64,000 bases of DNA from an uncultured Candidatus Saccharibacteria bacterium (GCA_964596395.1 CAZQSY010000005.1:1628-65627); one strand, 5' to 3'. Shown: positions 11,440 to 40,142, counted from the first letter of the stretch. Notes: generated from the letters alone by a model not told the origin. A program made the numbers and translations.

Positions 11440-13119
11440 TTAAAGCTCCTCCTGCGGGGGCAGAAGCACTTCGGCTTTTGAGAATTTTGTTCTGAAAGCC
11501 AAAGAAAGTTCCTCGAGTTCTTCATTCTTAAGCAGGCGCAAGATTATTATGCCGGCGCCAATGCCTAAAATCCCCGAAAGCAGGCCCTGCAGGAAAATTC
11601 CCCAGAAAGTGGTGGTGCCGAATATCGGCGAGAAAAAATTCAACCCGATGTAAGCGACGAAGCCAATGAAAAAAGACGCGCCCAGGCTCTGAAAGAATGT
11701 CTTGGTGATGAACGACTCGCCCTGCATAAAATCCTTTCGCACGAAGTACCACCCTAAAATTGAATTCAGTATGGTACCACACGAGTACGCGAGCGGGAGC
11801 ATCAGCACTTCCGTGCCTGAGATATCCTCGACTTTTAGCAAGGATTCCATGAAATACCGAAAAGACAAGATGTTCTGAAAAGCGTGAGTGAATAAATAAG
11901 CCAGAAGAACTATCAGGGTAGAACAAAGAAGATTTATAGCGAGCGGGCGCCGGGTGTTGCCCATGGCGTAATACGCGCGGGAAAGAAGCGCTACCATGCC
12001 CTGCGCGAGTACCGAGACCGAGAAAATAGCCACCGAGGCCGCGACTAATCTTGTATCGTCCCAAGAAAACGAACCCGAGCCGAGCGCCACGCGCACGATC
12101 TGCGCGCGCAACACGATAAAAAGAAAAATAACCGGCAGGGACCAGAATACTATTTGCCGAGCCGTCTCTTTCAGGTGATTTTTGAAAAGAATCTTGTCGC
12201 CTACCCCGAAAGATTTAACCAAAGTCGGAAAAGCTGCCACCGCGTAGGAAACCCCGATTATCGTAACCGGCACCGATTGCAAATTAAAGGAAAAATTAAA
12301 AACCGAAATTGAACCGCCGACAAAATACGAAGCAAAAGCGATGATGAAGATAAGAGCCATGTTATTGAAAGAAAGCCCCAGGGTCCTGGGGAGAGAGTTG
12401 AACGTAATTTCTTTTATCTCCTTCCAATCTATACGCAAAGAAAAAGCGGGCCTGAATCCACACAGGAAAGACGATAGAAATTGTACGACAAAATGCATGA
12501 ACGCGCCTAAGACCACGCCCAAGGCGAGCCCCTTTATACCGAAACTCGGGTAAAGCAAAATCACCCCGATAATTATTCCGAGGTTGTAAAAAATCGGGCT
12601 CAGAGAATAAAGAAAAAACCGGCGGAAAAGCTGGGTGACTGTGCCAAAAAGATTCGAGAGCCCCAGCAGAATCGGAGACACCAGCATTATTCTCGAGAAA
12701 ACGACCACCCTGTCCTGCATTACTTCGCCGAAACCGGGCGCAACGAAAGAGACAAGCATCGGCATAAGCACGAAAACCAGAGCCGAGATTACCGCCAAGG
12801 CCGCGAAGAAAACCGTAAACACGTTGTTGAGGAGAACACGCGATTCTGCCGTCACTTCGTTGCCGCGCATTTTCTTTGCGATAAAAGGCACCAGCACGGT
12901 GACCGAAGCGAGAGAAGCAATCGAAATAAAAATGAAATCGGGAACGCGAAAAGCCGCGTAGTAGGCGTCGAGCTCGGGAGACGGACCAATGAAATGCGCG
13001 ATTGCCCGGTCGCGAAAGAGCCCCAAAATCTGGGACAGAAAAGTGAAAAAACCGAGCAGAATAGCGGCTTGGTTTATGTTACTGTATTCCCTGCCAAAGA
13101 TTCTTAAAATTCTCTGCAT
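11440..13119 (-). CDS. murJ: Lipid II flippase MurJ (MviN family)
   Basis: 559 aa polytopic membrane protein; N-terminus AAILLGFFTFLSQILGLFRDRAIAHFIGPSPELDAYYAAFRVPDF is a MurJ hallmark. Confidence 0.85.
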   Translation of the reverse strand: MQRILRIFGREYSNINQAAILLGFFTFLSQILGLFRDRAIAHFIGPSPELDAYYAAFRVPDFIFISIASLASVTVLVPFIAKKMRGNEVTAESRVLLNNVFTVFFAALAVISALVFVLMPMLVSFVAPGFGEVMQDRVVVFSRIMLVSPILLGLSNLFGTVTQLFRRFFLYSLSPIFYNLGIIIGVILLYPSFGIKGLALGVVLGAFMHFVVQFLSSFLCGFRPAFSLRIDWKEIKEITFNSLPRTLGLSFNNMALIFIIAFASYFVGGSISVFNFSFNLQSVPVTIIGVSYAVAAFPTLVKSFGVGDKILFKNHLKETARQIVFWSLPVIFLFIVLRAQIVRVALGSGSFSWDDTRLVAASVAIFSVSVLAQGMVALLSRAYYAMGNTRRPLAINLLCSTLIVLLAYLFTHAFQNILSFRYFMESLLKVEDISGTEVLMLPLAYSCGTILNSILGWYFVRKDFMQGESFITKTFFQSLGASFFIGFVAYIGLNFFSPIFGTTTFWGIFLQGLLSGILGIGAGIIILRLLKNEELEELSLAFRTKFSKAEVLLPPQEEL

Positions 13120-13135
13120 CTGCGGACTTTTATTT

Positions 13136-16114
13136 TTACGCCAAAATATTTATAAGTCTGTTTTTTACGTAGATTGCTCTCTTTATAGGATTGCCAGCCA
13201 TGTGTTTTGCTACATTTTCATCGGCCAGCGCCTTGTTTTTTACTGTTTCTTCCGAATCGCCGGCGTTTACCAATATTTCCGAACGTACCTTGCCGTTTAC
13301 CTGCACGGCGATTTTTACTTCTTCGTCTTTGAGCAATTTTTCTTCCCACTTCGGCCATGGAGATAAATGTATACTTTTCTTTTCGCCAAGTTCATGCCAA
13401 ATATATTCTGTCACATACGGCGCGAAGGGAGCGAGAATTTGCAGAAATTTTTTGAAATCCTCCGTTGAAATATAATCTGCTTTATCCATTTCTCCGGCTA
13501 GCACCATCATAGCCGAAACAGCCGTGTTAAAACGCATGTTTTCAATATCTTCCGAGACTTTTTTGATGGTTTTATGAAGAAGTTTTGAAAGAGGGGAAGG
13601 CAAGGAATTTTTAAGAGTCGTGGGTTCCCTGCCCTCATGACTCCGAGGGCGAAGGCTCAGAAAATTCTTTGCATTCCCCTCTTTGACCTTTTGCCCGATT
13701 CGCCACACTTTTTCTATAAACCTGCGCGGGCCGATGATGCTCTCGGTACTCCAAACCGCCGCTTCTTCGAACGGGCCCATAAACATTTCGTACACGCGTA
13801 GAGTGTCCGCGCCGTAAGTTTTGATGATGTCGTCAGGATTCACCACATTACCTAAAGATTTAGACATTTTTACTCCCCCTTCGCCTAAAATCATTCCGTG
13901 CGAAGTCCGCTTCGCGTACGGTTCCGGCGTCGGCACCAGCTTAAGGTCATACAAAAACTTGTGCCAGAAACGCGAATACAGAAGGTGCAGTGTAGTATGT
14001 TCCATGCCTCCGTTGTACCAATCTACTCCGCCAGGACCCAACTTGGAAGTCCGACTTCCAAGTGACTTGCCAAGCCAATATTTTAAATTTTTCTTGCTTG
14101 CGAATTCTTTATTATTTTTCGGGTCGGTGTAGCGCAAATAATACCAGGAACTCCCGGCCCAGTTTGGCATTGTGTCTGTTTCTCTTTTAGCCGGGCCTTT
14201 GCACTTCGGGCATTTAGTGTTTACCCATTTTGAAATCGAAGCCAGTGGCGACTCGCCGGTATCTGTCGGCTTGTAGCTTTTCACTTCCGGCAATTTCACC
14301 GGCAAATCTTTTTCCGGCACAGGCACCCAGCCGGCATTCAACTTGGAAGTCCGACTTCCAAGCAAGTCCTTCTTCTGGCAATTTTCACAAAACACTAACG
14401 GTATCGGCTCGCCCCAATATCTCTGCCGCGAGAAAACCCAGTCGCGCAGTTTAAATTTGGTAACAATTTTGCCGTCCACAAAATCCGTTATTTTTTTCTT
14501 CGCTTCTTCGGAATTTAAGCCGTCAAACCTGCCGGAGTTTGCAAGAATACCTTCTCCCGCATAAATTTCTAAACCATTCTTAAAAGCCCGCCAATCTCTA
14601 AGCGCTGCTCCTTTTAAGACATTCTCTACCTCTTCCGGTAAAAGCCATTTGGGTTCATGTTTTTCTTTTTCTTCTTCCGATAACTCTATATGTTCACCAT
14701 TCTTCAATTCAAAATAAAGATGGTGAAAATGGGCAAAACGATTTTCTTTTTTCAGAACATGAAAAAACTTTTCGTGAGAACGATACAATTCTTTCACGAA
14801 CACAGGATTCAAGTACCCCGTTTCTTCTTTTATCTCTCTAATGGCCGACTTTACCGAGTCTTCCCCTTCTTCAATTCCCCCGGTTATGAAAGTTATCCAT
14901 CCTCCCTTCTTCCAAAACAAAATTAAATATTTATCAAGAGCCCAATGTTTGACAATCGCGTGCGTTGCATTCCTCTCTATAAACTGAAGCCCCTCCTTCG
15001 GCTTATCTTCTTCGCTGATAAAAATCGGTTCAATGACATTCTTGATTGGCAAATTGTATTTTTTCGCAAACTCGTTATCCCGTTCGTCGTGCGCCGGCAC
15101 AGCCATGATGGCGCCGGTGCCATATTCGGGTAATACATAATCCGCGATAAAAATCGGAATCTCCTCATTGTTTGCCGGATTTACCGCCTTTATTCCTTTG
15201 AGTTCAACGCCGGTTTTTTCTTTGCTCTCGGCTGTACGTTCCATTTCTGTTTTCGTTTTGTTCGCCAGGATGTACTGCCACACCTCGCTCCAGTTGGAAA
15301 TATTATGCCGGAGTTTTTGCACCACCTCGTGCTCGGGCGCCAGCACCAGATAAGTCGCGCCGAAAAGGGTATCCGCGCGAGTAGTGAAAACCTCTATGTC
15401 AAAGGGCACCTTTGACACTTTAAATTTAATCAACACGCCTTCAGACTTTCCTATCCAGTTCCTCTGCTGAATTTTTACCCGCTCCGGATAATCCACCAAA
15501 TCCAAATCCTTATCGAGCCGGTCGGCGTACTTGGTAATCGCGAGCATCCATTGCTCTTTTTCCCTTTTTTCCGTTTGGCTGCCGCAGCGTTCACAGACAC
15601 CCCCAACCGCTTCTTCGTTGGCAAGCCCGATTTTACATTTCGGGCACCAATTTATGTATGACTTCGCCTTGTACGCCAAACCTTTTTTGAAAAGCTGTAA
15701 AAATATCCACTGCGTCCACTTGTAATATTTCGGGTCAGTAGTGTTTATCTCGCGGGGCCAGTCAAAAGAAAAACCAAGTGATTTGAGCTGCCGGCGAAAA
15801 GTATCCGTATTTTTCTTTGTTACCAGCGCCGGCTTCTCCCCCGTTTTTATTGCGTAATTTTCAGTAGGCAGACCAAAAGCGTCCCATCCGATGGGATACA
15901 AGACATTCTGGCCTTCCATTCGCCTTTTTCTGGCGATGATATCCATCGCCGCGTAGCTCCGAATATGGCCGGTATGCAACCCGGCGCCCGAAGGATACGG
16001 AAATTCTACCAGCGGGTAAAACTTTTTCCCCTTATCTGTCGCTCGATAGATTTTTTTCTTTTCCCATTCCTTCCAAACTTTCGGCTCAATTTTTTGGTGG
16101 TCGTAATTTTTCAT
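13136..16114 (-). CDS. leuS: Leucyl-tRNA synthetase carrying an internal NUDIX domain and three small in-frame repeat-element insertions
   Basis: 992 aa. HIGH-type motif PYPSGAGLHTGH, CP1 editing domain TTRADTLFGATY, KMSKS (VKMSKSLGNVV). Extra segments: Nudix box GGIEEGEDSVKSAIREIKEETGY; two LGSRTSKL octapeptides encoded by a 23-bp palindrome; a ~24-aa segment KNFLSLRPRSHEGREPTTLKNSLP encoded by a 70-bp repeat. Confidence 0.95.
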   Translation of the reverse strand: MKNYDHQKIEPKVWKEWEKKKIYRATDKGKKFYPLVEFPYPSGAGLHTGHIRSYAAMDIIARKRRMEGQNVLYPIGWDAFGLPTENYAIKTGEKPALVTKKNTDTFRRQLKSLGFSFDWPREINTTDPKYYKWTQWIFLQLFKKGLAYKAKSYINWCPKCKIGLANEEAVGGVCERCGSQTEKREKEQWMLAITKYADRLDKDLDLVDYPERVKIQQRNWIGKSEGVLIKFKVSKVPFDIEVFTTRADTLFGATYLVLAPEHEVVQKLRHNISNWSEVWQYILANKTKTEMERTAESKEKTGVELKGIKAVNPANNEEIPIFIADYVLPEYGTGAIMAVPAHDERDNEFAKKYNLPIKNVIEPIFISEEDKPKEGLQFIERNATHAIVKHWALDKYLILFWKKGGWITFITGGIEEGEDSVKSAIREIKEETGYLNPVFVKELYRSHEKFFHVLKKENRFAHFHHLYFELKNGEHIELSEEEKEKHEPKWLLPEEVENVLKGAALRDWRAFKNGLEIYAGEGILANSGRFDGLNSEEAKKKITDFVDGKIVTKFKLRDWVFSRQRYWGEPIPLVFCENCQKKDLLGSRTSKLNAGWVPVPEKDLPVKLPEVKSYKPTDTGESPLASISKWVNTKCPKCKGPAKRETDTMPNWAGSSWYYLRYTDPKNNKEFASKKNLKYWLGKSLGSRTSKLGPGGVDWYNGGMEHTTLHLLYSRFWHKFLYDLKLVPTPEPYAKRTSHGMILGEGGVKMSKSLGNVVNPDDIIKTYGADTLRVYEMFMGPFEEAAVWSTESIIGPRRFIEKVWRIGQKVKEGNAKNFLSLRPRSHEGREPTTLKNSLPSPLSKLLHKTIKKVSEDIENMRFNTAVSAMMVLAGEMDKADYISTEDFKKFLQILAPFAPYVTEYIWHELGEKKSIHLSPWPKWEEKLLKDEEVKIAVQVNGKVRSEILVNAGDSEETVKNKALADENVAKHMAGNPIKRAIYVKNRLINILA
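13607..13673. repeat. Family-2 MITE-like element (~70 bp), copy 1, in-frame inside leuS
   Basis: ggaatttttaagagtcgtgggttccctgccctcatgactccgagggcgaaggctcagaaaattcttt. About 80% identical to 18100-18169. AGAATTTT-type terminal inverted repeats and a GC-rich core hairpin (gccctc...gagggc). Confidence 0.6.
14041..14063. repeat. REP-like 23-bp perfect palindrome (copy A), in-frame inside leuS
   Basis: ACTTGGAAGTCCGACTTCCAAGT; encodes LGSRTSKL on the leuS strand just before the conserved VDWY.GG.EH..LHLLY block. Confidence 0.8.
14341..14363. repeat. REP-like palindrome (copy B, 22/23), in-frame inside leuS
   Basis: ACTTGGAAGTCCGACTTCCAAGc, exactly 300 bp from copy A. Encodes a second LGSRTSKL just before the conserved VPVPEKDLPV block. 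Confidence 0.8.
14555..15025 (-). other. NUDIX hydrolase domain (~155 aa) inserted in LeuRS between the editing domain and the ZN/leucyl-specific region
   Basis: Nudix box G-x5-E-x7-REUxEExGU satisfied exactly by GGIEEGEDSVKSAIREIKEETGY (nt 14813-14881). Flanking residues NLPIKNVIEP and GILANSGRFDGL match contiguous E. coli LeuRS positions. Confidence 0.7.
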
Positions 16115-17213: not shown

Positions 17214-17585
17214 ATGGACAAGAAGTTTGACGATTTTTCTAAAAAAATAACAAGATGGATAGGGTCCCCTTCTTCTCTGATAATGCACTCTCTGTTTTTC
17301 GCGGGAATTTTTTTCCTGAAAATATTCGGGGTATCTTCCGACGAAATTCTCTTGATCCTCACCACGATTGTATCGCTCGAAGCGATTTACTTGTCGATTT
17401 TCATACAAATGACCGTAAACAGGCACACCAAAGAGCTCAAAGAGGTCTCTAAAGATGTTGAAGAAATCCAGGAAAGCGTGAGTGAAATAGAAGAAAGCGT
17501 GGAAGAAATTGAAGAAGATGTCGGGGACATTGTGGAAGATATCGAAGACGGAGACAAAACAAGAATCATCGAGAGCTCCAAATAG
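17214..17585 (+). CDS. DUF1003-family small membrane protein
   Basis: 123 aa. Two TM helices with ILTTIVSLEAIYLSIFIQMTVNRHTKE matching the DUF1003 core, followed by an acidic coiled-coil tail. Confidence 0.5.
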   Translation: MDKKFDDFSKKITRWIGSPSSLIMHSLFFAGIFFLKIFGVSSDEILLILTTIVSLEAIYLSIFIQMTVNRHTKELKEVSKDVEEIQESVSEIEESVEEIEEDVGDIVEDIEDGDKTRIIESSK

Positions 17586-18567
17586 CGGTATTGGCCAGCG
17601 GGACAAAACGACTGTTTGATTTTTCAAAAATACACAACTCGCCTGATTCGGTTTTACCGCCGAGTTCCCGCATCGCGTCTTCCAGCGCGTATCCTAAGGC
17701 GAGCGAAGAAGAATCGGTAGCGTAAGAAGTAAGTATTACAAAAAGAGGATTGTCGCTCAAGACTTTTCTAGCATACGCGAGGAGTTTCGGTAAATCTTTT
17801 TCTATCTTCCACACTTCTCCCTTCGGCCCGCGGCCGAATTTCGGCGGGTCCATCATCACGCATTCATACCTGTTGCCGCGCTTCACTTCTCTTTCCAAAA
17901 ATTTCAAAGCGTCGTCCAAAATAATGCGCATCGGCATTCCCCCAAGCCCGGAAATTTTTTGGTTCTCCTTTACCCATTCCAGTATCTGCTTTGAAGCATC
18001 CACATGCGTGACCTCCGCCCCAGCCCGCAGAGCAAACAAACTCGCCACTCCGGTGTAGCCGAACAAATTCAAGAATTTAATCTTGGGTTGCCTCGGGGAA
18101 GAATTTTTAAGAAACGTGTGGGTTCCCTGTCCTTTTGTCTCCGAGGGCGCAGTTTCAAGAAAATTCTTTCCCGAGGCAATCCCTTTTATTTTTTCTTCTA
18201 TAAAATCCCAATGGCTGGCCTGCTCGGGGAAAAAACCCAAGTGGCGAAAGGGCGTGGGGGAAGCGAAAAATTTTGTGCCCTTGTAATTCATTTCCCATTT
18301 TTTGAGCAAGGACTCCCCTTGCTCATTTTTACTCCTCATTTCCCAGCCACCTCTCGCACCATCCTTCCCCGCCAAAAATTTCCCATCCGCCTCTGCCCAT
18401 TCTTTTACAAAAGTTTTCTGCCATAGAGCGCTTTCATACGGCCGCGCGAAAGTATACGGCCCAAATCTCTCGAGCTTCTCCCCTCCGCCGGTATCTAACA
18501 ATTCATAATCCCGCCAGTCATCGGCGCAGAAAATTTTAATTTCTTTTTTCATTCTAATATTATGCAT
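17566..18567 (-). CDS. Class I SAM-dependent rRNA methyltransferase, RlmI/YccW-like (PF10672), with in-frame 70-bp element insertion
   Basis: LNLFGYTGVASL (motif I), DASK, MDPPKFG (RlmI DPPKF motif). Extra ~25 aa KNFLETAPSETKGQGTHTFLKNSSP just before motif I. The start is probably the internal ATG giving MKKEIKIF (18552). Confidence 0.7.
   Translation of the reverse strand: MHNIRMKKEIKIFCADDWRDYELLDTGGGEKLERFGPYTFARPYESALWQKTFVKEWAEADGKFLAGKDGARGGWEMRSKNEQGESLLKKWEMNYKGTKFFASPTPFRHLGFFPEQASHWDFIEEKIKGIASGKNFLETAPSETKGQGTHTFLKNSSPRQPKIKFLNLFGYTGVASLFALRAGAEVTHVDASKQILEWVKENQKISGLGGMPMRIILDDALKFLEREVKRGNRYECVMMDPPKFGRGPKGEVWKIEKDLPKLLAYARKVLSDNPLFVILTSYATDSSSLALGYALEDAMRELGGKTESGELCIFEKSNSRFVPLANTAIWSSR
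18100..18169. repeat. Family-2 MITE-like element (~70 bp), copy 2, in-frame inside the RlmI-like methyltransferase gene
   Basis: agaatttttaagaaacgtgtgggttccctgtccttttgtctccgagggcgcagtttcaagaaaattcttt aligns with 13607-13673. Confidence 0.6.
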
Positions 18568-24651: not shown

Positions 24652-24674
24652 ACTTGGAAGTCCGACTTCCAAGT
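24652..24674. repeat. REP-like 23-bp palindrome (copy C), left boundary of the RAYT/SDR insertion; overlaps the putative RAYT promoter
   Basis: ACTTGGAAGTCCGACTTCCAAGT, 31 bp upstream of the tktC start. Its TTGGAA (24654-24659) lies 17 bp upstream of TGgTATAAT (24674-24682). Confidence 0.8.
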
Positions 24675-24682
24675 GGTATAAT

Positions 24683-25315
24683 TTGGCTATGAGGAAACAT
24701 AAATTCGTGGAGGGAGAATACTACCACATATATAACCGTGGAACAGAAAAAAGAAAAATAATCCTAGACGAATACGACCTAGACCGTTTTCTAGAAAGCA
24801 TGAAAGAGTTCAACACATTAGAACCTATAGGAAGTATTTACGAACAATCTTTCATAAAAAAGGAACTTGGAAGTCCGACTTCCAAGTCCAAACTGGTATC
24901 AATAATATCCTACTGCATAAACCCAAACCATTTTCATATGCTGATTACTCCCCTAGTAGAAAAGGGGATAGAAAAGTTTATGCAAAGAATTGGTGGTTAT
25001 ACTAAATATTTTAACGAAAAATATAAAAGAAACGGGGTTCTGTTTCAAGGTAAATTTAAATCAAAACATGTCTATACAGATAATAGATATTTGCTTCACT
25101 TAAGCGCTTACATAAACATGAACAACCGCAACCGACTTGGAAGTCCGACTTCCAAGTTGAGTAAATCGAGCTTGGAAGAATACACTAAAGGCGAAAAGGG
25201 TATCTGTAACATGGATATAGTCTTGGGTCAGTTTGAAAACGGAAAAGAGTATCTAAGGTTTTCTTTGGAATCCTGGCAAGATACGCAGGAAAGAAAAAAA
25301 GCTCTTGAAATGTAA
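24683..25315 (+). CDS. REP-associated tyrosine transposase (RAYT; IS200/IS605-like HUH-Y1), carrying two in-frame REP copies
   Basis: YYHIYNRG (cf. RAYT YHVTQRG), HUH motif NPNHFHMLITP (cf. SNHVHLLLTP), GGYTKYFNEKYKRNGVLFQGKFKSKHVYTDNRYLLHLSAYIN (cf. YTRYINRRYGRTGHLWQGRFKS...EYLLACSRYIELNP). The likely true start is the ATG at 24689. Confidence 0.75.
   Translation: MAMRKHKFVEGEYYHIYNRGTEKRKIILDEYDLDRFLESMKEFNTLEPIGSIYEQSFIKKELGSPTSKSKLVSIISYCINPNHFHMLITPLVEKGIEKFMQRIGGYTKYFNEKYKRNGVLFQGKFKSKHVYTDNRYLLHLSAYINMNNRNRLGSPTSKLSKSSLEEYTKGEKGICNMDIVLGQFENGKEYLRFSLESWQDTQERKKALEM
24865..24887. repeat. REP-like palindrome (copy D), in-frame inside the RAYT gene
   Basis: ACTTGGAAGTCCGACTTCCAAGT encoding ELGSPTSK. 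Confidence 0.8.
25135..25157. repeat. REP-like palindrome (copy E), in-frame inside the RAYT gene
   Basis: ACTTGGAAGTCCGACTTCCAAGT encoding RLGSPTSKL, near the RAYT C-terminus. Confidence 0.8.
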
Positions 25316-25337
25316 CTTAGTACTTCGATTACTAAGT
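25315..25337. repeat. Degenerate REP-like 23-bp hairpin (15/23 identity to the REP) at the convergent RAYT/SDR junction
   Basis: ACTTAGTACTTCGATTACTAAGT has an 8-bp stem and 7-nt loop. It overlaps the RAYT stop and could act as a bidirectional terminator. Confidence 0.45.
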
Positions 25338-26090: not shown

Positions 26091-26113
26091 ACTTGGAAGT
26101 CGGACTTCCAAGT
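26091..26113. repeat. REP-like palindrome (copy F, centre G = inverted orientation), right boundary of the RAYT/SDR insertion
   Basis: ACTTGGAAGTCGGACTTCCAAGT, 2 bp after the tktN stop and 10 bp before the SDR start. Confidence 0.8.
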
Positions 26114-39236: not shown

Positions 39237-40142
39237 ATGGAAAAACTAATCAATACAAGCAGAAGGCTAACCTTTGCATTTTGGGGAACGCCGAAGATAG
39301 CGAGCGAAACTTTAGAAATTCTGAAAGAAAGCGGTTTTTTGCCGTCGCTCATAATTACTTCGCCCGACAGGCCGCAGGGGCGGAAAATGACCGTAACCCC
39401 CCCGCCGGTAAAAGTTTGGGCGGTGGAAAATAACATTCCATATCTGCAGCCGGAGAACTTCATGTCAAGGACGGTCCTTGACACTTTGTCAAAGGGCACC
39501 TTTGACATATCTGTTGTTGTTGCTTACGGAAAGATAATTCCGGAGGAAATTTTAGACATGCCAAAATTTGGCTCAATAAACGTGCACTATTCCCTGCTCC
39601 CAAAATACCGCGGGGCCTCGCCTGTCGAATCTGCAGTATTAAATGGTGAAACAGAAACTGGCGTAAGTATTCAGAAGATGGAATACAAGATGGATACCGG
39701 CCCGATTCTGGCCGCAGAAAAAACGGAAATTGGCAAAGACGAAAAAGCGCCGGAGCTTAAAAAACGCCTGACAAAAATCGGCGGAGAATTGTTAATAAAG
39801 TTATTGAATACCACCCCCACCCTTGATAAGGAGGGGGGCTGGGAAGGGGTCAAACAAGACGAATCCCAAGCCACTTACTGCAAAAAAATAAAAAAAGAAG
39901 ACGGACTAGTGAATCTGGAAGCTGAACTCCCAATTACGCTGTACAACAAATTCCGCGCCTACGCCGAGTGGCCCAGGATTTTCTTTTTCAGATGGCACCT
40001 GCCTGCCGGCAGGCAGGAAAGAGTAATCATTACCGATGCTTCGCTTGAGGACGGAAAATTCGCAATCAAAAAAGTTTTACCCGAGGGCAGAAAAGAAATA
40101 ACCTGGGAAGAATTCAAGAAAAACTATTCTAATATTCTATAG
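39237..40142 (+). CDS. fmt: Methionyl-tRNA formyltransferase
   Basis: FWGTPKIASETLE, INVHYSLLPKYRGASPVESAVLNGETETGVSI, C-terminal Fmt domain. Confidence 0.9.
   Translation: MEKLINTSRRLTFAFWGTPKIASETLEILKESGFLPSLIITSPDRPQGRKMTVTPPPVKVWAVENNIPYLQPENFMSRTVLDTLSKGTFDISVVVAYGKIIPEEILDMPKFGSINVHYSLLPKYRGASPVESAVLNGETETGVSIQKMEYKMDTGPILAAEKTEIGKDEKAPELKKRLTKIGGELLIKLLNTTPTLDKEGGWEGVKQDESQATYCKKIKKEDGLVNLEAELPITLYNKFRAYAEWPRIFFFRWHLPAGRQERVIITDASLEDGKFAIKKVLPEGRKEITWEEFKKNYSNIL

Follow-up and report, generated by a model that had tools for sequence, protein, structure and literature searches.

A REP-type hairpin repeat lies in frame in leuS and within the RAYT-like transposase gene to which it is probably tied in Patescibacteria

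How does one short palindrome come to lie in frame both in an essential gene, leuS, and in the gene for a RAYT-like transposase? In the window, by which we mean the whole 64-kb stretch (64,000 nucleotides) of DNA analysed here, the palindrome ACTTGGAAGT-CSG-ACTTCCAAGT has six matches, against 0.01 expected from shuffles. Its 23-nt perfect form, ACTTGGAAGTCCGACTTCCAAGT, starts at positions 14041, 14341 (with one mismatch, the final C), 24652, 24865 and 25135, and a version with the loop CGG starts at 26091; leuS and the RAYT-like gene each hold two of these copies in frame, and the remaining two are intergenic. The family shares the design ACTTGG-N4-N3-N4'-CCAAGT, a perfect 10-bp DNA hairpin (-8.6 kcal/mol, z = -5.7, for copy A in leuS). 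With a 23-nt unit, a 10-bp stem, and six copies plus one relic in 64 kb, the element is a short stem-loop of REP size; it does not share the extragenic location of REPs, as four of the six window copies lie in ORFs. The DNA covered comprised this one 64-kb window and loci of 8 kb. The feet of the hairpin are ACTT/AAGT, and the GTAG/GTGG (or CGTC) tetranucleotide is absent from them. A logo of the flanks of 59 oriented copies reveals no conserved tag outside the palindrome, merely an occasional extension of it (CCA...TGG), and the window holds no copies with two to six mismatches to the current variant. We think it probable that these hairpins form a REP-type family, that the family belongs with a RAYT-like Y1/HUH transposase inherited vertically in Patescibacteria (Paceibacteria-type CPR), and that its copies are overwritten in place.

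The host gene leuS (13136..16114, minus strand) encodes 992 amino acids, with HIGH-type and KMSKS motifs and with editing and anticodon-binding domains intact. Copy A (14041..14063, a perfect 23-nt palindrome) and copy B (14341..14363, 22 of 23 bases matching) both encode LGSRTSK(L) in frame, at residues 685-692 and 585-592 respectively, with copy B directly C-terminal of a CxxC zinc knuckle. An earlier note on this DNA held that each copy adds exactly LGSRTSKL between contiguous conserved blocks. Frame and peptide stand, but the length does not: at site B most of 120 LeuRS orthologs have C-G-[LIV]VPVPE, and at site A they have KYW-TP-VDWYNGG, so that the window LeuRS has about 16 (B) and about 14 (A) extra residues relative to these empty sites. 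The copy-A column of the alignment is filled in just 8-17 of the 120. Read from this alignment, the leuS copies are genuine lineage-specific in-frame additions, and they sit within older, insertion-prone loop expansions that are themselves lineage-specific. A degenerate partial arm, GACTTGCCAAG (14064..14074), abuts copy A. It supplies the codons for LGKS, the residues just ahead of the insert, and was probably left behind by an earlier copy; a relative, L043, has CTTGGCTCGCCGAAG in its place. The earlier note would have been contradicted had close relatives carried the same octapeptide without a palindrome. Instead, variant repeats fill the same leuS site in the two closest LeuRS orthologs, and in the closest relative, L043, a 44-nt abutting inverted doublet of another palindromic variant (11755-11798) occupies the same codon as copy B. 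Mapped onto an AlphaFold2 (AF2) model of LeuRS, as had been proposed, both insertion sites fall in loops of low or moderate confidence (pLDDT below 50 for residues 684-691 at copy A, about 69 at copy B), and the two copies are, most likely, passengers that surface loops tolerate rather than functional modules. Intein- or intron-like removal was considered and dropped. The window leuS also holds a separate TIR element of about 70 nt (13600-13690), which is a closer analogue of Rickettsia palindromic elements (RPEs) than the 23-nt unit is.

The identical 23-mer occurs at 42 loci in many independent Patescibacteria MAGs produced by several assemblers (MEGAHIT, SPAdes, JGI). In other Patescibacteria it is found in frame in FtsK, TopA, RecG, DnaG, MetRS, GluRS, UvrC, MnmA and TatD, and of 60 copies in all, about half fall in ORFs of recognisable genes. 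This distribution over many studies, together with the identical recovery of the LeuRS protein from NCBI and Logan assemblies (the RAYT protein was likewise recovered from both), makes it scarcely credible that the element is an assembly or library artefact, that is, an adapter-like palindrome or a chimeric join. Library artefacts can yield palindromes, and the element contains AAGTCGGA, with which MGI/BGI adapters also begin. Yet continuous in-frame coding sequence always lies on both sides of the element, the element is shorter than assembly k-mers, and its lineage-specific variants co-vary with the RAYT phylogeny. Composite forms (for example 23+15 or 23+19 nt) occur at other loci, and the putative mobile unit is 21, 23 or 24 nt long. 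An all-vs-all blastn of 130 loci for filled and empty allele pairs gave no usable gap coinciding with the palindrome, because the loci are too diverged (64-75% identity).

The same copies bear on whether the heptapeptide L-G-S-P/R-T-S-K, as a tag, modification site or linker, is the object of selection and the palindromy of the DNA incidental. All four intragenic window copies share one frame, and of 13 frame-1 copies elsewhere, 12 read LEVGLPS and not LEVRLPS, a sign of some protein-level filtering. Against this, one and the same DNA is translated in all three frames in different proteins (14, 13 and 4 in-frame 23-mers) and also lies between genes, the peptide varies freely between lineages while pairing is retained, and no case has so far been seen in which the peptide is kept through synonymous, non-palindromic codons. 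Considering also the modelled loops at sites A and B, of low and moderate confidence, we find a selected protein motif very improbable. None of the copies introduces a stop codon, as the earlier note said, and the window variant is free of stops in all six frames. That property might be taken for a selected design, a reading we rejected: 54% of random palindromes of the same design are stop-free, as are 14 of 38 natural variants. The symmetric frame does encode the same peptide in both orientations, as had been claimed, except at the loop codon, which gives P or R.

The candidate enzyme (208 aa) is encoded by a RAYT-like gene (24689..25315, plus strand), with the HUH motif in NPNHFHMLI and the catalytic tyrosine in SAYINMNN, both nearly invariant across the homolog alignment. 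Its score of 34.9 bits against Pfam Y1_Tnp (PF01797; cutoff 23) places it in the Y1 HUH superfamily. Against NCBIfam REP_Tyr_transpos it scores 22.8 bits (cutoff 80) and so falls outside the RAYT equivalog; several homologs are labelled 'RayT' by JGI. Since a phmmer search of PDB sequences returned no match, fold comparison was needed: the AF2 model (pLDDT 79.8) matches IS608 TnpA, TnpA_REP 4er8 and ISDra2, the best PDB matches in Foldseek being 2a6m, 4er8 and 2xma (probability 1.00, target-normalised TM 0.46-0.54). This is the only Y1_Tnp ORF in the 64 kb, and it lies between split transketolase genes in the window as in three related loci (L045, L046 and L050). The clade of its homologs comprises more than 1,600 proteins with intact catalytic motifs, and we predict that it is a domesticated, hairpin-cutting enzyme.

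The repeat is built into this locus. Copy C (24652..24674) lies immediately 5' of the gene and overlaps the -35/spacer region of a putative promoter. Copies D (24865..24887; site 1) and E (25135..25157; site 2) each encode LGSPTSK within the gene, D in a loop between helix 1 and the HUH strand (AF2 pLDDT below 50) and E directly after the helix with the catalytic tyrosine; in both modelled proteins, then, the repeat lies in loops. A seventh, diverged copy, ACTTAGTACTTCGATTACTAAGT (25315..25337), overlooked until now, has as its first base the last base of the RAYT stop codon, and copy F (26091..26113), with its loop inverted (CGG), falls in the gap that separates the transketolase-N gene from an SDR oxidoreductase gene. 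Copies D and E had been described as adding LGSPTSK(L) to the RAYT ORF. They are in frame and encode LGSPTSK twice, but nothing has been added, for all 120 RAYT homologs have a 7-aa segment at both internal positions, and the internal copies always read L-G-x-x-x-x-K. Hairpins were counted at the 51 loci that could be parsed among 88 examined (37 were unparsed). Hairpins of 7 bp or more occur at site 1 in 37 of the 51 and at site 2 in 31, and the gene is flanked by its cognate repeat, with such hairpins upstream in 46 and downstream in 40. In the flanks the best perfect stem averages 10.2 bp (upstream) and 9.3 bp (downstream), and at the internal sites 9.1 bp (site 1) and 8.9 bp (site 2), compared with 5.1 and 4.5 in control windows inside the same gene. 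All hairpins of a locus have the same arm in 34 of 45 loci, more than 20 cores are found between loci, and the loops of the flanking copies are inverted inconsistently. On sequence comparison, the internal copies are not sporadic insertions: they are conserved throughout the RAYT clade and co-evolve within it. The link between a REP-type hairpin and a co-located RAYT-like Y1 transposase, which the earlier note proposed, is supported by the Y1_Tnp domain, the fold and the hairpins at these 51 loci.

Cores differ between lineages by compensatory changes that are almost exclusively Watson-Crick. Among hairpins preselected for stems of at least 7 bp, a choice that inflates pairing at the outer positions, 97.2% of cells are Watson-Crick, double changes occur at 8 of 10 pairs, and there is one G-U in 390 cells. 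The near-absence of G-U pairs speaks against an RNA hairpin (an mRNA stabiliser, RNase site or attenuator) maintained by selection on transcripts, with the transposase a bystander. Classical REPs do affect mRNA stability and termination (PMC3733652), and the downstream copy at the RAYT stop lies between convergent genes. However, copies face both ways with respect to transcription and also lie deep within coding regions, an Rfam scan of the whole window gave no match, and the link to RAYT is very tight, with four co-varying copies per gene; we consider selection on RNA quite unlikely. The pattern of conserved outer arms around a variable centre, with one copy over the putative RAYT promoter, could also describe a double-stranded operator with half-sites ACTTGG/CCAAGT for a dimeric DNA-binding protein, the dispersed copies being its regulon. 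An operator spacer needs neither self-complementarity nor paired substitutions, whereas the 'spacer' here is perfectly self-complementary and changes in pairs, and most copies lie in coding sequence, distant from promoters. We give this reading very little credence.

The upstream copy overlaps a promoter-like region that includes a conserved TATAAT box. A TATAAT box (TGGTATAAT, extended -10-like; 24677..24682, plus strand) lies 6 nt before the RAYT ATG and may act as the promoter of the gene, in which case the mRNA would be leaderless or nearly so. The centre of the upstream hairpin is 25.5 nt from the ATG in the window and 25.5-27.5 nt from it in 30 of 56 related loci, and of the 29 loci where a TATAAT-like box can be recognised, 19 have 6-7 nt between that box and the ATG. 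On this conserved spacing rest the putative roles of the box as promoter and of the hairpin in autoregulation.

The lineage of the window has changed its variant. Its RAYT is nested in a clade with LGTPTTK and yet reads LGSPTSK at both internal sites. The diverged copy at 25315-25337 has seven mismatches to the current variant and four to the GGTACT variant (DNA fold -3.7 kcal/mol), and comparison identifies it as a relic of that GGTACT variant, which the closest RAYT relatives use. The switch was concerted and took in every active copy; GGTACT gave way to GGAAGT at the upstream copy, both internal copies and both leuS copies, leaving one relic. A switch at orthologous sites (RAYT sites 1 and 2, and leuS site B) favours in-place replacement over birth-and-death. 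In-place overwriting would be explained equally well by homogenisation without the transposase, through hairpin-induced template switching during replication or short-patch gene conversion, with RAYT inactive or otherwise employed. The activity of RAYT is predicted, and the tandem partial duplications TWKSDFQVDFQVDF and LEVGLPSGSPTS resemble slippage products. On the other side, the catalytic motifs are intact over the whole clade, RAYT is always physically embedded among the repeats, and the only homology available for recombination is the conserved 6 bp arm. We regard transposase-free homogenisation as unlikely, and favour a family tied to its transposase.

How such a family would be maintained can be pictured from characterised enzymes: TnpA_REP cleaves at a C|T step beside REPs and carries out strand transfer (PMC8266576), and the outer arms of the repeat hold such a step. 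We suggest that the transposase would bind the single-stranded hairpin via these conserved outer arms, and that hairpins may be copied or exchanged through cleavage and strand transfer. Copying or exchange would lead to the overwriting of copies at fixed sites, that is, to concerted evolution. New copies would survive only where their net length is a multiple of three and the peptide falls in a tolerant loop, and the promoter-overlapping copy, possibly with the internal copies, may be the enzyme's handle on its own expression.

The closest known counterparts are the REP/RAYT units ('REPtrons') of Proteobacteria (Nunvar 2010, PMC2817692; Ton-Hoang 2012, PMC3333891; Messing 2012, PMC3479197; Corneloup 2021, PMC8266576). 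As in REPtrons, short palindromic repeats scattered through the genome lie on both sides of a single Y1/HUH gene, and repeat and transposase co-diverge with complementary changes that preserve palindromy. Unlike them, the element here is symmetric (ACTT...AAGT) without a GTAG/GTGG head, its flanking copies are not consistently inverted, about half of its copies are intragenic, its host belongs to the Patescibacteria, its protein scores far below the NCBIfam RAYT cutoff, and two copies lie inside the coding sequence of their own transposase and one over its putative promoter. REPINs (Bertels & Rainey 2011, PMC3116915; RAREFAN preprint) make up a population that is inherited vertically together with a single-copy RAYT, as the repeats here probably do, and like these have a dominant 'master' sequence and few intermediates. 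REPINs are extragenic inverted doublets with a spacer, whereas singlets dominate here: the window copies are all singlets, and the 44-nt inverted doublet appears only in the relative L043. IS200/IS605 elements (IS608, ISDra2) share the Y1 HUH fold and recognise single-stranded DNA hairpins, a likeness that extends to this RAYT by prediction. They are multi-copy whole elements with distinct left and right ends, unlike the RAYT gene here, which is syntenic, present once in the window and apparently not itself multiplied, and in which one hairpin recurs at the two ends and internally. RPEs measure roughly 100-150 bp and have no known transposase. The parallel to RPEs drawn in the earlier note extends to in-frame insertion in protein-coding genes and not to the unit itself, which is 23 nt and has a cognate RAYT. 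RPEs (Ogata et al. 2000, via PMC3733652) are in-frame palindromes in proteins that probably still function, in a small gene-dense genome, as here.

Intragenic REPs and RPEs are thus already published, and the novelty that the earlier note implied was overstated: Di Nocera et al. 2013 (PMC3733652) catalogued GTAG/CGTC REPs wholly within ORFs of known proteins. As here, one gene sometimes holds two of these, related species may have them at similar sites, and replication and repair genes are frequent hosts; unlike here, they are a minority within otherwise extragenic, tetranucleotide-tagged families, and the available text reports neither copies inside a RAYT gene nor in-place replacement of variants. 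A transposase gene that carries and updates its own repeat appears to be undescribed so far, and we found no relevant paper in the open-access literature searched that links REP/RAYT with the Candidate Phyla Radiation.

The finding extends REP/RAYT biology to the Candidate Phyla Radiation, and indicates that in very gene-dense genomes such repeats live largely within essential genes. A transposase with its own substrate at conserved codons and over its putative promoter offers a handle on how RAYTs are regulated and how REP populations are kept homogeneous. For annotation and phylogenomics, such repeats generate lineage-specific indels and identical peptides in unrelated proteins. We raise, tentatively and with more doubt than confidence, the possibility that the RAYT gene and its four built-in hairpins are a self-regulating 'master locus' whose enzyme would bind the hairpin over its putative promoter and, cleaving the conserved arms and transferring strands, overwrite cores genome-wide at fixed sites. 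If so, one change in the master would rewrite, in a single evolutionary step, a loop of 7-8 amino acids in dozens of essential proteins (LeuRS, TopA, FtsK and DnaG among them); across the genome, protein segments would then evolve in concert under the action of a transposase, a process undescribed for any REP/RAYT system.

The window (G+C 44.9%) carries a perfect 23-nt palindrome, ACTTGGAAGT-CCG-ACTTCCAAGT, at positions 14041 (copy A), 14341 (B, last base C), 24652 (C), 24865 (D) and 25135 (E), and a loop-inverted form (CGG) at 26091 (F). With up to three mismatches allowed, these six matches compare with 0.01 expected from dinucleotide-preserving shuffles. The in-frame palindromes are genuine and not an artefact. 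As single-stranded DNA the 23-mer forms a 10-bp hairpin (-8.6 kcal/mol, z = -5.7). A relaxed scan of the window returned no copies at two to six mismatches and a sole palindromic relative at seven, ACTTAGTACTTCGATTACTAAGT at 25315-25337 (the relic). Copies A and B lie in the minus-strand leuS ORF (13136-16114), where they read LGSRTSKL at aa 685-692 and 585-592, respectively; D and E each read LGSPTSK in the plus-strand ORF of a RAYT-like Y1/HUH transposase (24689-25315, 208 aa). Copies C and F are intergenic, in the local order transketolase-C, copy C, RAYT, relic, SDR oxidoreductase, copy F, transketolase-N.

The two copies within the RAYT gene, read in the earlier note as insertions, are instead part of a conserved, co-evolving architecture. 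The ORF matches Pfam Y1_Tnp above cutoff, and all 120 of its closest homologs (59-100% identity) possess a 7-residue segment, L-G/S-x-x-x-T/S-K, at the positions of both copy D (site 1) and copy E (site 2); homologs differ in this segment, and the two sites tend to vary together. We examined 88 RAYT-bearing loci (the window, 80 metagenome loci and seven others) and parsed the DNA of 51. The mean best perfect stem is 10.2 bp in the upstream flank (at least 7 bp in 46/51 loci), 9.1 bp at site 1 (37/51), 8.9 bp at site 2 (31/51) and 9.3 bp in the downstream flank (40/51), against 5.1 bp (6/51) and 4.5 bp (3/51) in two control windows of the same gene. The hairpins of a locus have one core in common, with arms all identical in 34 of 45 loci, and more than 20 cores occur between loci (arms including AAGT, TACT, TCAC, AGGC, ACAT, CGGT, AAAC, AGAT, AGAC and GAAT) within a constant frame, ACTTGG-core-loop-...-CCAAGT. 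Across 39 distinct internal 23-mers, standard pairs make up 97.2% of cells and both-side changes occur at eight of ten pairs; selection of this set by stems of at least 7 bp partly guarantees the outer pairs, though neither the inner pairs nor the contrast with the control windows. Slid controls all drop to 21-48% pairing, and the near absence of G-U pairs (1/390 cells) argues that pairing acts at the DNA level. In some lineages one site is no longer palindromic and the segment length is kept (NGDLISE, CGNVIFK), so the hairpins are not needed for the protein. An AF2 model of the window RAYT (pLDDT 79.8) has site 1 as a loop (pLDDT <50) and models site 2, which follows the Tyr helix, with confidence in an extended conformation. 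The structures that match the model best are those of IS608 TnpA, E. coli TnpA_REP with a REP hairpin (4er8) and ISDra2 TnpA.

The repeat variant itself has been switched. In a neighbour-joining tree of 120 RAYTs, built after masking of both sites, the window RAYT nests in a clade otherwise made up of L(G/S)(T/A)PTTK proteins (GGTACT core), where it alone has LGSPTSK at both sites; the remaining LGSPTSK RAYTs fall in distant clades. The GGTACT core and the window's GGAAGT core differ at three bases: T7A and A17T together flip one pair, and C9G allows one more to form. The upstream copy, sites 1 and 2, leuS copies A and B, and F all have the new core; at the RAYT stop the copy is of GGTACT type, in decayed form, and the LeuRS homologs P0002 and P0003 retain the GGTACT type at the leuS position of copy B (site B). 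Loop orientation at fixed sites differs among lineages. Because the same triple change at many fixed sites cannot have arisen by independent mutation, we infer that copies were overwritten in place, which could have proceeded by excision and re-insertion, transposase-catalysed strand exchange, or template switching; no pair of filled and empty alleles was found among the loci compared. At 25162-25190, 13 nt past copy E, the conserved RAYT motif SSLEEY is encoded by AGCTTGGAAGAATAC, in which the opening 8 nt of the present REP arm (CTTGGAAG) recur, whether by coincidence or as a possible source of the GGAAGT core.

The upstream hairpin lies at a preferred distance from the gene, its centre 25.5-27.5 nt from the ATG in 30 of the 56 loci where both hairpin and start codon could be placed. 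A TATAAT-like box stands 3' of the hairpin in 29 loci, followed after 6-7 nt by the ATG in 19 of them. The window reads ...CCAAGT-GG-TATAAT-TTGGCT-ATG (TATAAT at 24677-24682), a layout implying that the RAYT transcript would be leaderless and that the REP forms the -35/spacer region of a putative promoter. This predicted overlap is suggestive of RAYT autoregulation.

The leuS copies tell a more familiar story. The 992-aa product has every LeuRS domain plus a NUDIX domain, with HIGH-type and KMSKS motifs intact, and in an alignment of the 120 homologs listed (54-77% identity, besides one identical database entry) just 7-14 sequences have the residues of copy B and just 8-17 those of copy A. Both copies are real additions, but not, as had been proposed, of exactly LGSRTSKL between contiguous blocks: since most orthologs read C-G-[LIV]VPVPEKDLP at site B and KYW-TP-VDWYNGG at site A, the window protein has about 16 and 14 extra residues there, in expanded loops. 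A degenerate arm, GACTTGCCAAG, adjoins copy A, and the palindrome loops have expanded repeatedly in separate lineages (for example CAKASKGKENAGW in P0027 and LGKKE-LGTPTTK-WKSEYQV in P0040). The counter-case named in the earlier note, close relatives with the octapeptide and no palindrome, is not what we found. P0002, the closest relative among the homologs listed (identity 76% by search, 77% in the alignment; DNA in locus L043), agrees with the window in the codons that flank site B and has between them a 44-nt perfect palindrome, 21 nt longer than the window's, of two inverted units of another variant (CTTGGTAGTCGGAGTACCAAA and TTTGGTACTCCGACTACCAAG; peptide LGSRSTK-FGTPTTK). Mapped onto an AlphaFold2 model (pLDDT 81.6 overall), site A falls in a predicted disordered loop (residues 684-691, pLDDT <50), while site B is only moderately placed (~69). 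From the low loop pLDDT and the intact catalytic motifs, the leuS copies look like tolerated loop passengers. This part is a fresh example of a known phenomenon: Di Nocera et al. 2013 (PMC3733652) describe REPs wholly within ORFs, with two in some genes and similar positions among related species, and cite the Rickettsia palindromic element precedent. Separately, the NUDIX hydrolase domain (aa 403-504, with a canonical Nudix box) is an insertion common to nearly all of the 120 Paceibacteria-type homologs listed, some of which also contain other inserted domains (PF04480/PF18741, alpha/beta hydrolase).

Beyond the window, a species-representative genome collection has the exact 23-mer in 42 loci; two are short contigs binned elsewhere, and the others belong to Patescibacteria-type MAGs, which come from many different studies and assemblers. 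About half of 60 copies fall within long open frames, reading LGS(P/R)TSK (14), LEV(G/R)LPS (13) or TWKSDFQ (4); Pfam-confirmed hosts are FtsK, topoisomerase I (two copies), RecG, DnaG, MetRS, GluRS, UvrC, MnmA and TatD, and another LeuRS was assigned by sequence, without a Pfam scan. Composite forms recur, such as a full unit joined to a loop-inverted inner part of 15 or 19 nt, and homologous proteins of different genomes (L010/L017/L031; L024/L026) have the 23-mer, unchanged, at equivalent positions between diverged flanks. Freedom from stops in all six frames is ruled out as a selected design, since 54% of random palindromes of the same design have it, as do no more than 14 of the 38 natural variants. 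Of the 13 intragenic copies read in frame 1 as LEVxLPS (L001-L042), 12 have Gly at the loop codon and one has Arg, and Pro and Arg are balanced, eight to six, in the LGSxTSK frame; the bias hints at protein-level filtering of orientation.

Other in-frame elements accompany the 23-mer. A 21-nt palindrome family, TGTCAARGN-NNN-NCYTTGACA, occurs in frame at 15397-15417, 39463-39483 and 39487-39507, with one copy in leuS (VSKVPFD, aa 233-239; length unchanged relative to orthologs) and two in tandem in ORF 39237-40142 (MSRTVLDT-LSKGTFD), by sequence a probable methionyl-tRNA formyltransferase; relatives lie in L043 (7805, 14675) and L047 (2496). A MITE-like element of ~70 nt with terminal inverted repeats AAGAATTTT...AAAATTCTT (13600-13690 and 18085-18182) is translated in frame as KNFLSLRPRSHEGREPTTLKNSLP and KNFLETAPSETKGQGTHTFLKNSSP in leuS (aa 814-836, a hypervariable linker with AF2 pLDDT <50) and in minus-strand ORF 17566-18567. 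Similar peptides occur in LeuRS P0002, P0004 and P0011, and of the two it is this element, not the 23-mer, that comes closer to Rickettsia palindromic elements. A further family of palindromic inserts is represented by a 48-nt GC-rich palindrome, CCGCCTAGACTCGGCGAGGCTGGCGAGCCTTCGCGAGTCGAGGCGGGC, which adds 16 codons in frame to the transketolase-N gene of L045 (5636-5683) when compared with the window, L050, L052 and L053. In the closest relative, the transketolase locus (L043, 2425-3185) encodes a different Y1 transposase, 234 aa long. The palindrome that goes with this gene, GACAAGGTTTAACCTTGTC, is an unrelated one and is found upstream, in the loop equivalent to site 1 and across the stop codon; the L043 leuS nevertheless has the ACTTGG-type repeat.

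In known systems, REPs flank RAYT genes, share their phylogeny and keep their palindromy by compensatory change (Nunvar et al. 2010, PMC2817692), and TnpA_REP cuts between C and T next to the REP and carries out strand transfer (Corneloup et al. 2021, PMC8266576); the CT step within the conserved arm here may offer a lead. In the open-access literature we found no report of REP copies within RAYT coding sequence or over a RAYT promoter, of in-place REP variant switching, or of REP/RAYT systems in Patescibacteria/CPR. Unlike classical REPs, the window element has neither a tetranucleotide head nor an exclusively extragenic location, and its protein scores under the NCBIfam RAYT cutoff. The RAYT part is of greater interest than first thought, on other grounds than those proposed, namely its conserved, co-evolving architecture and not self-insertion. 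The element works like a REPtron, yet is a divergent variant.
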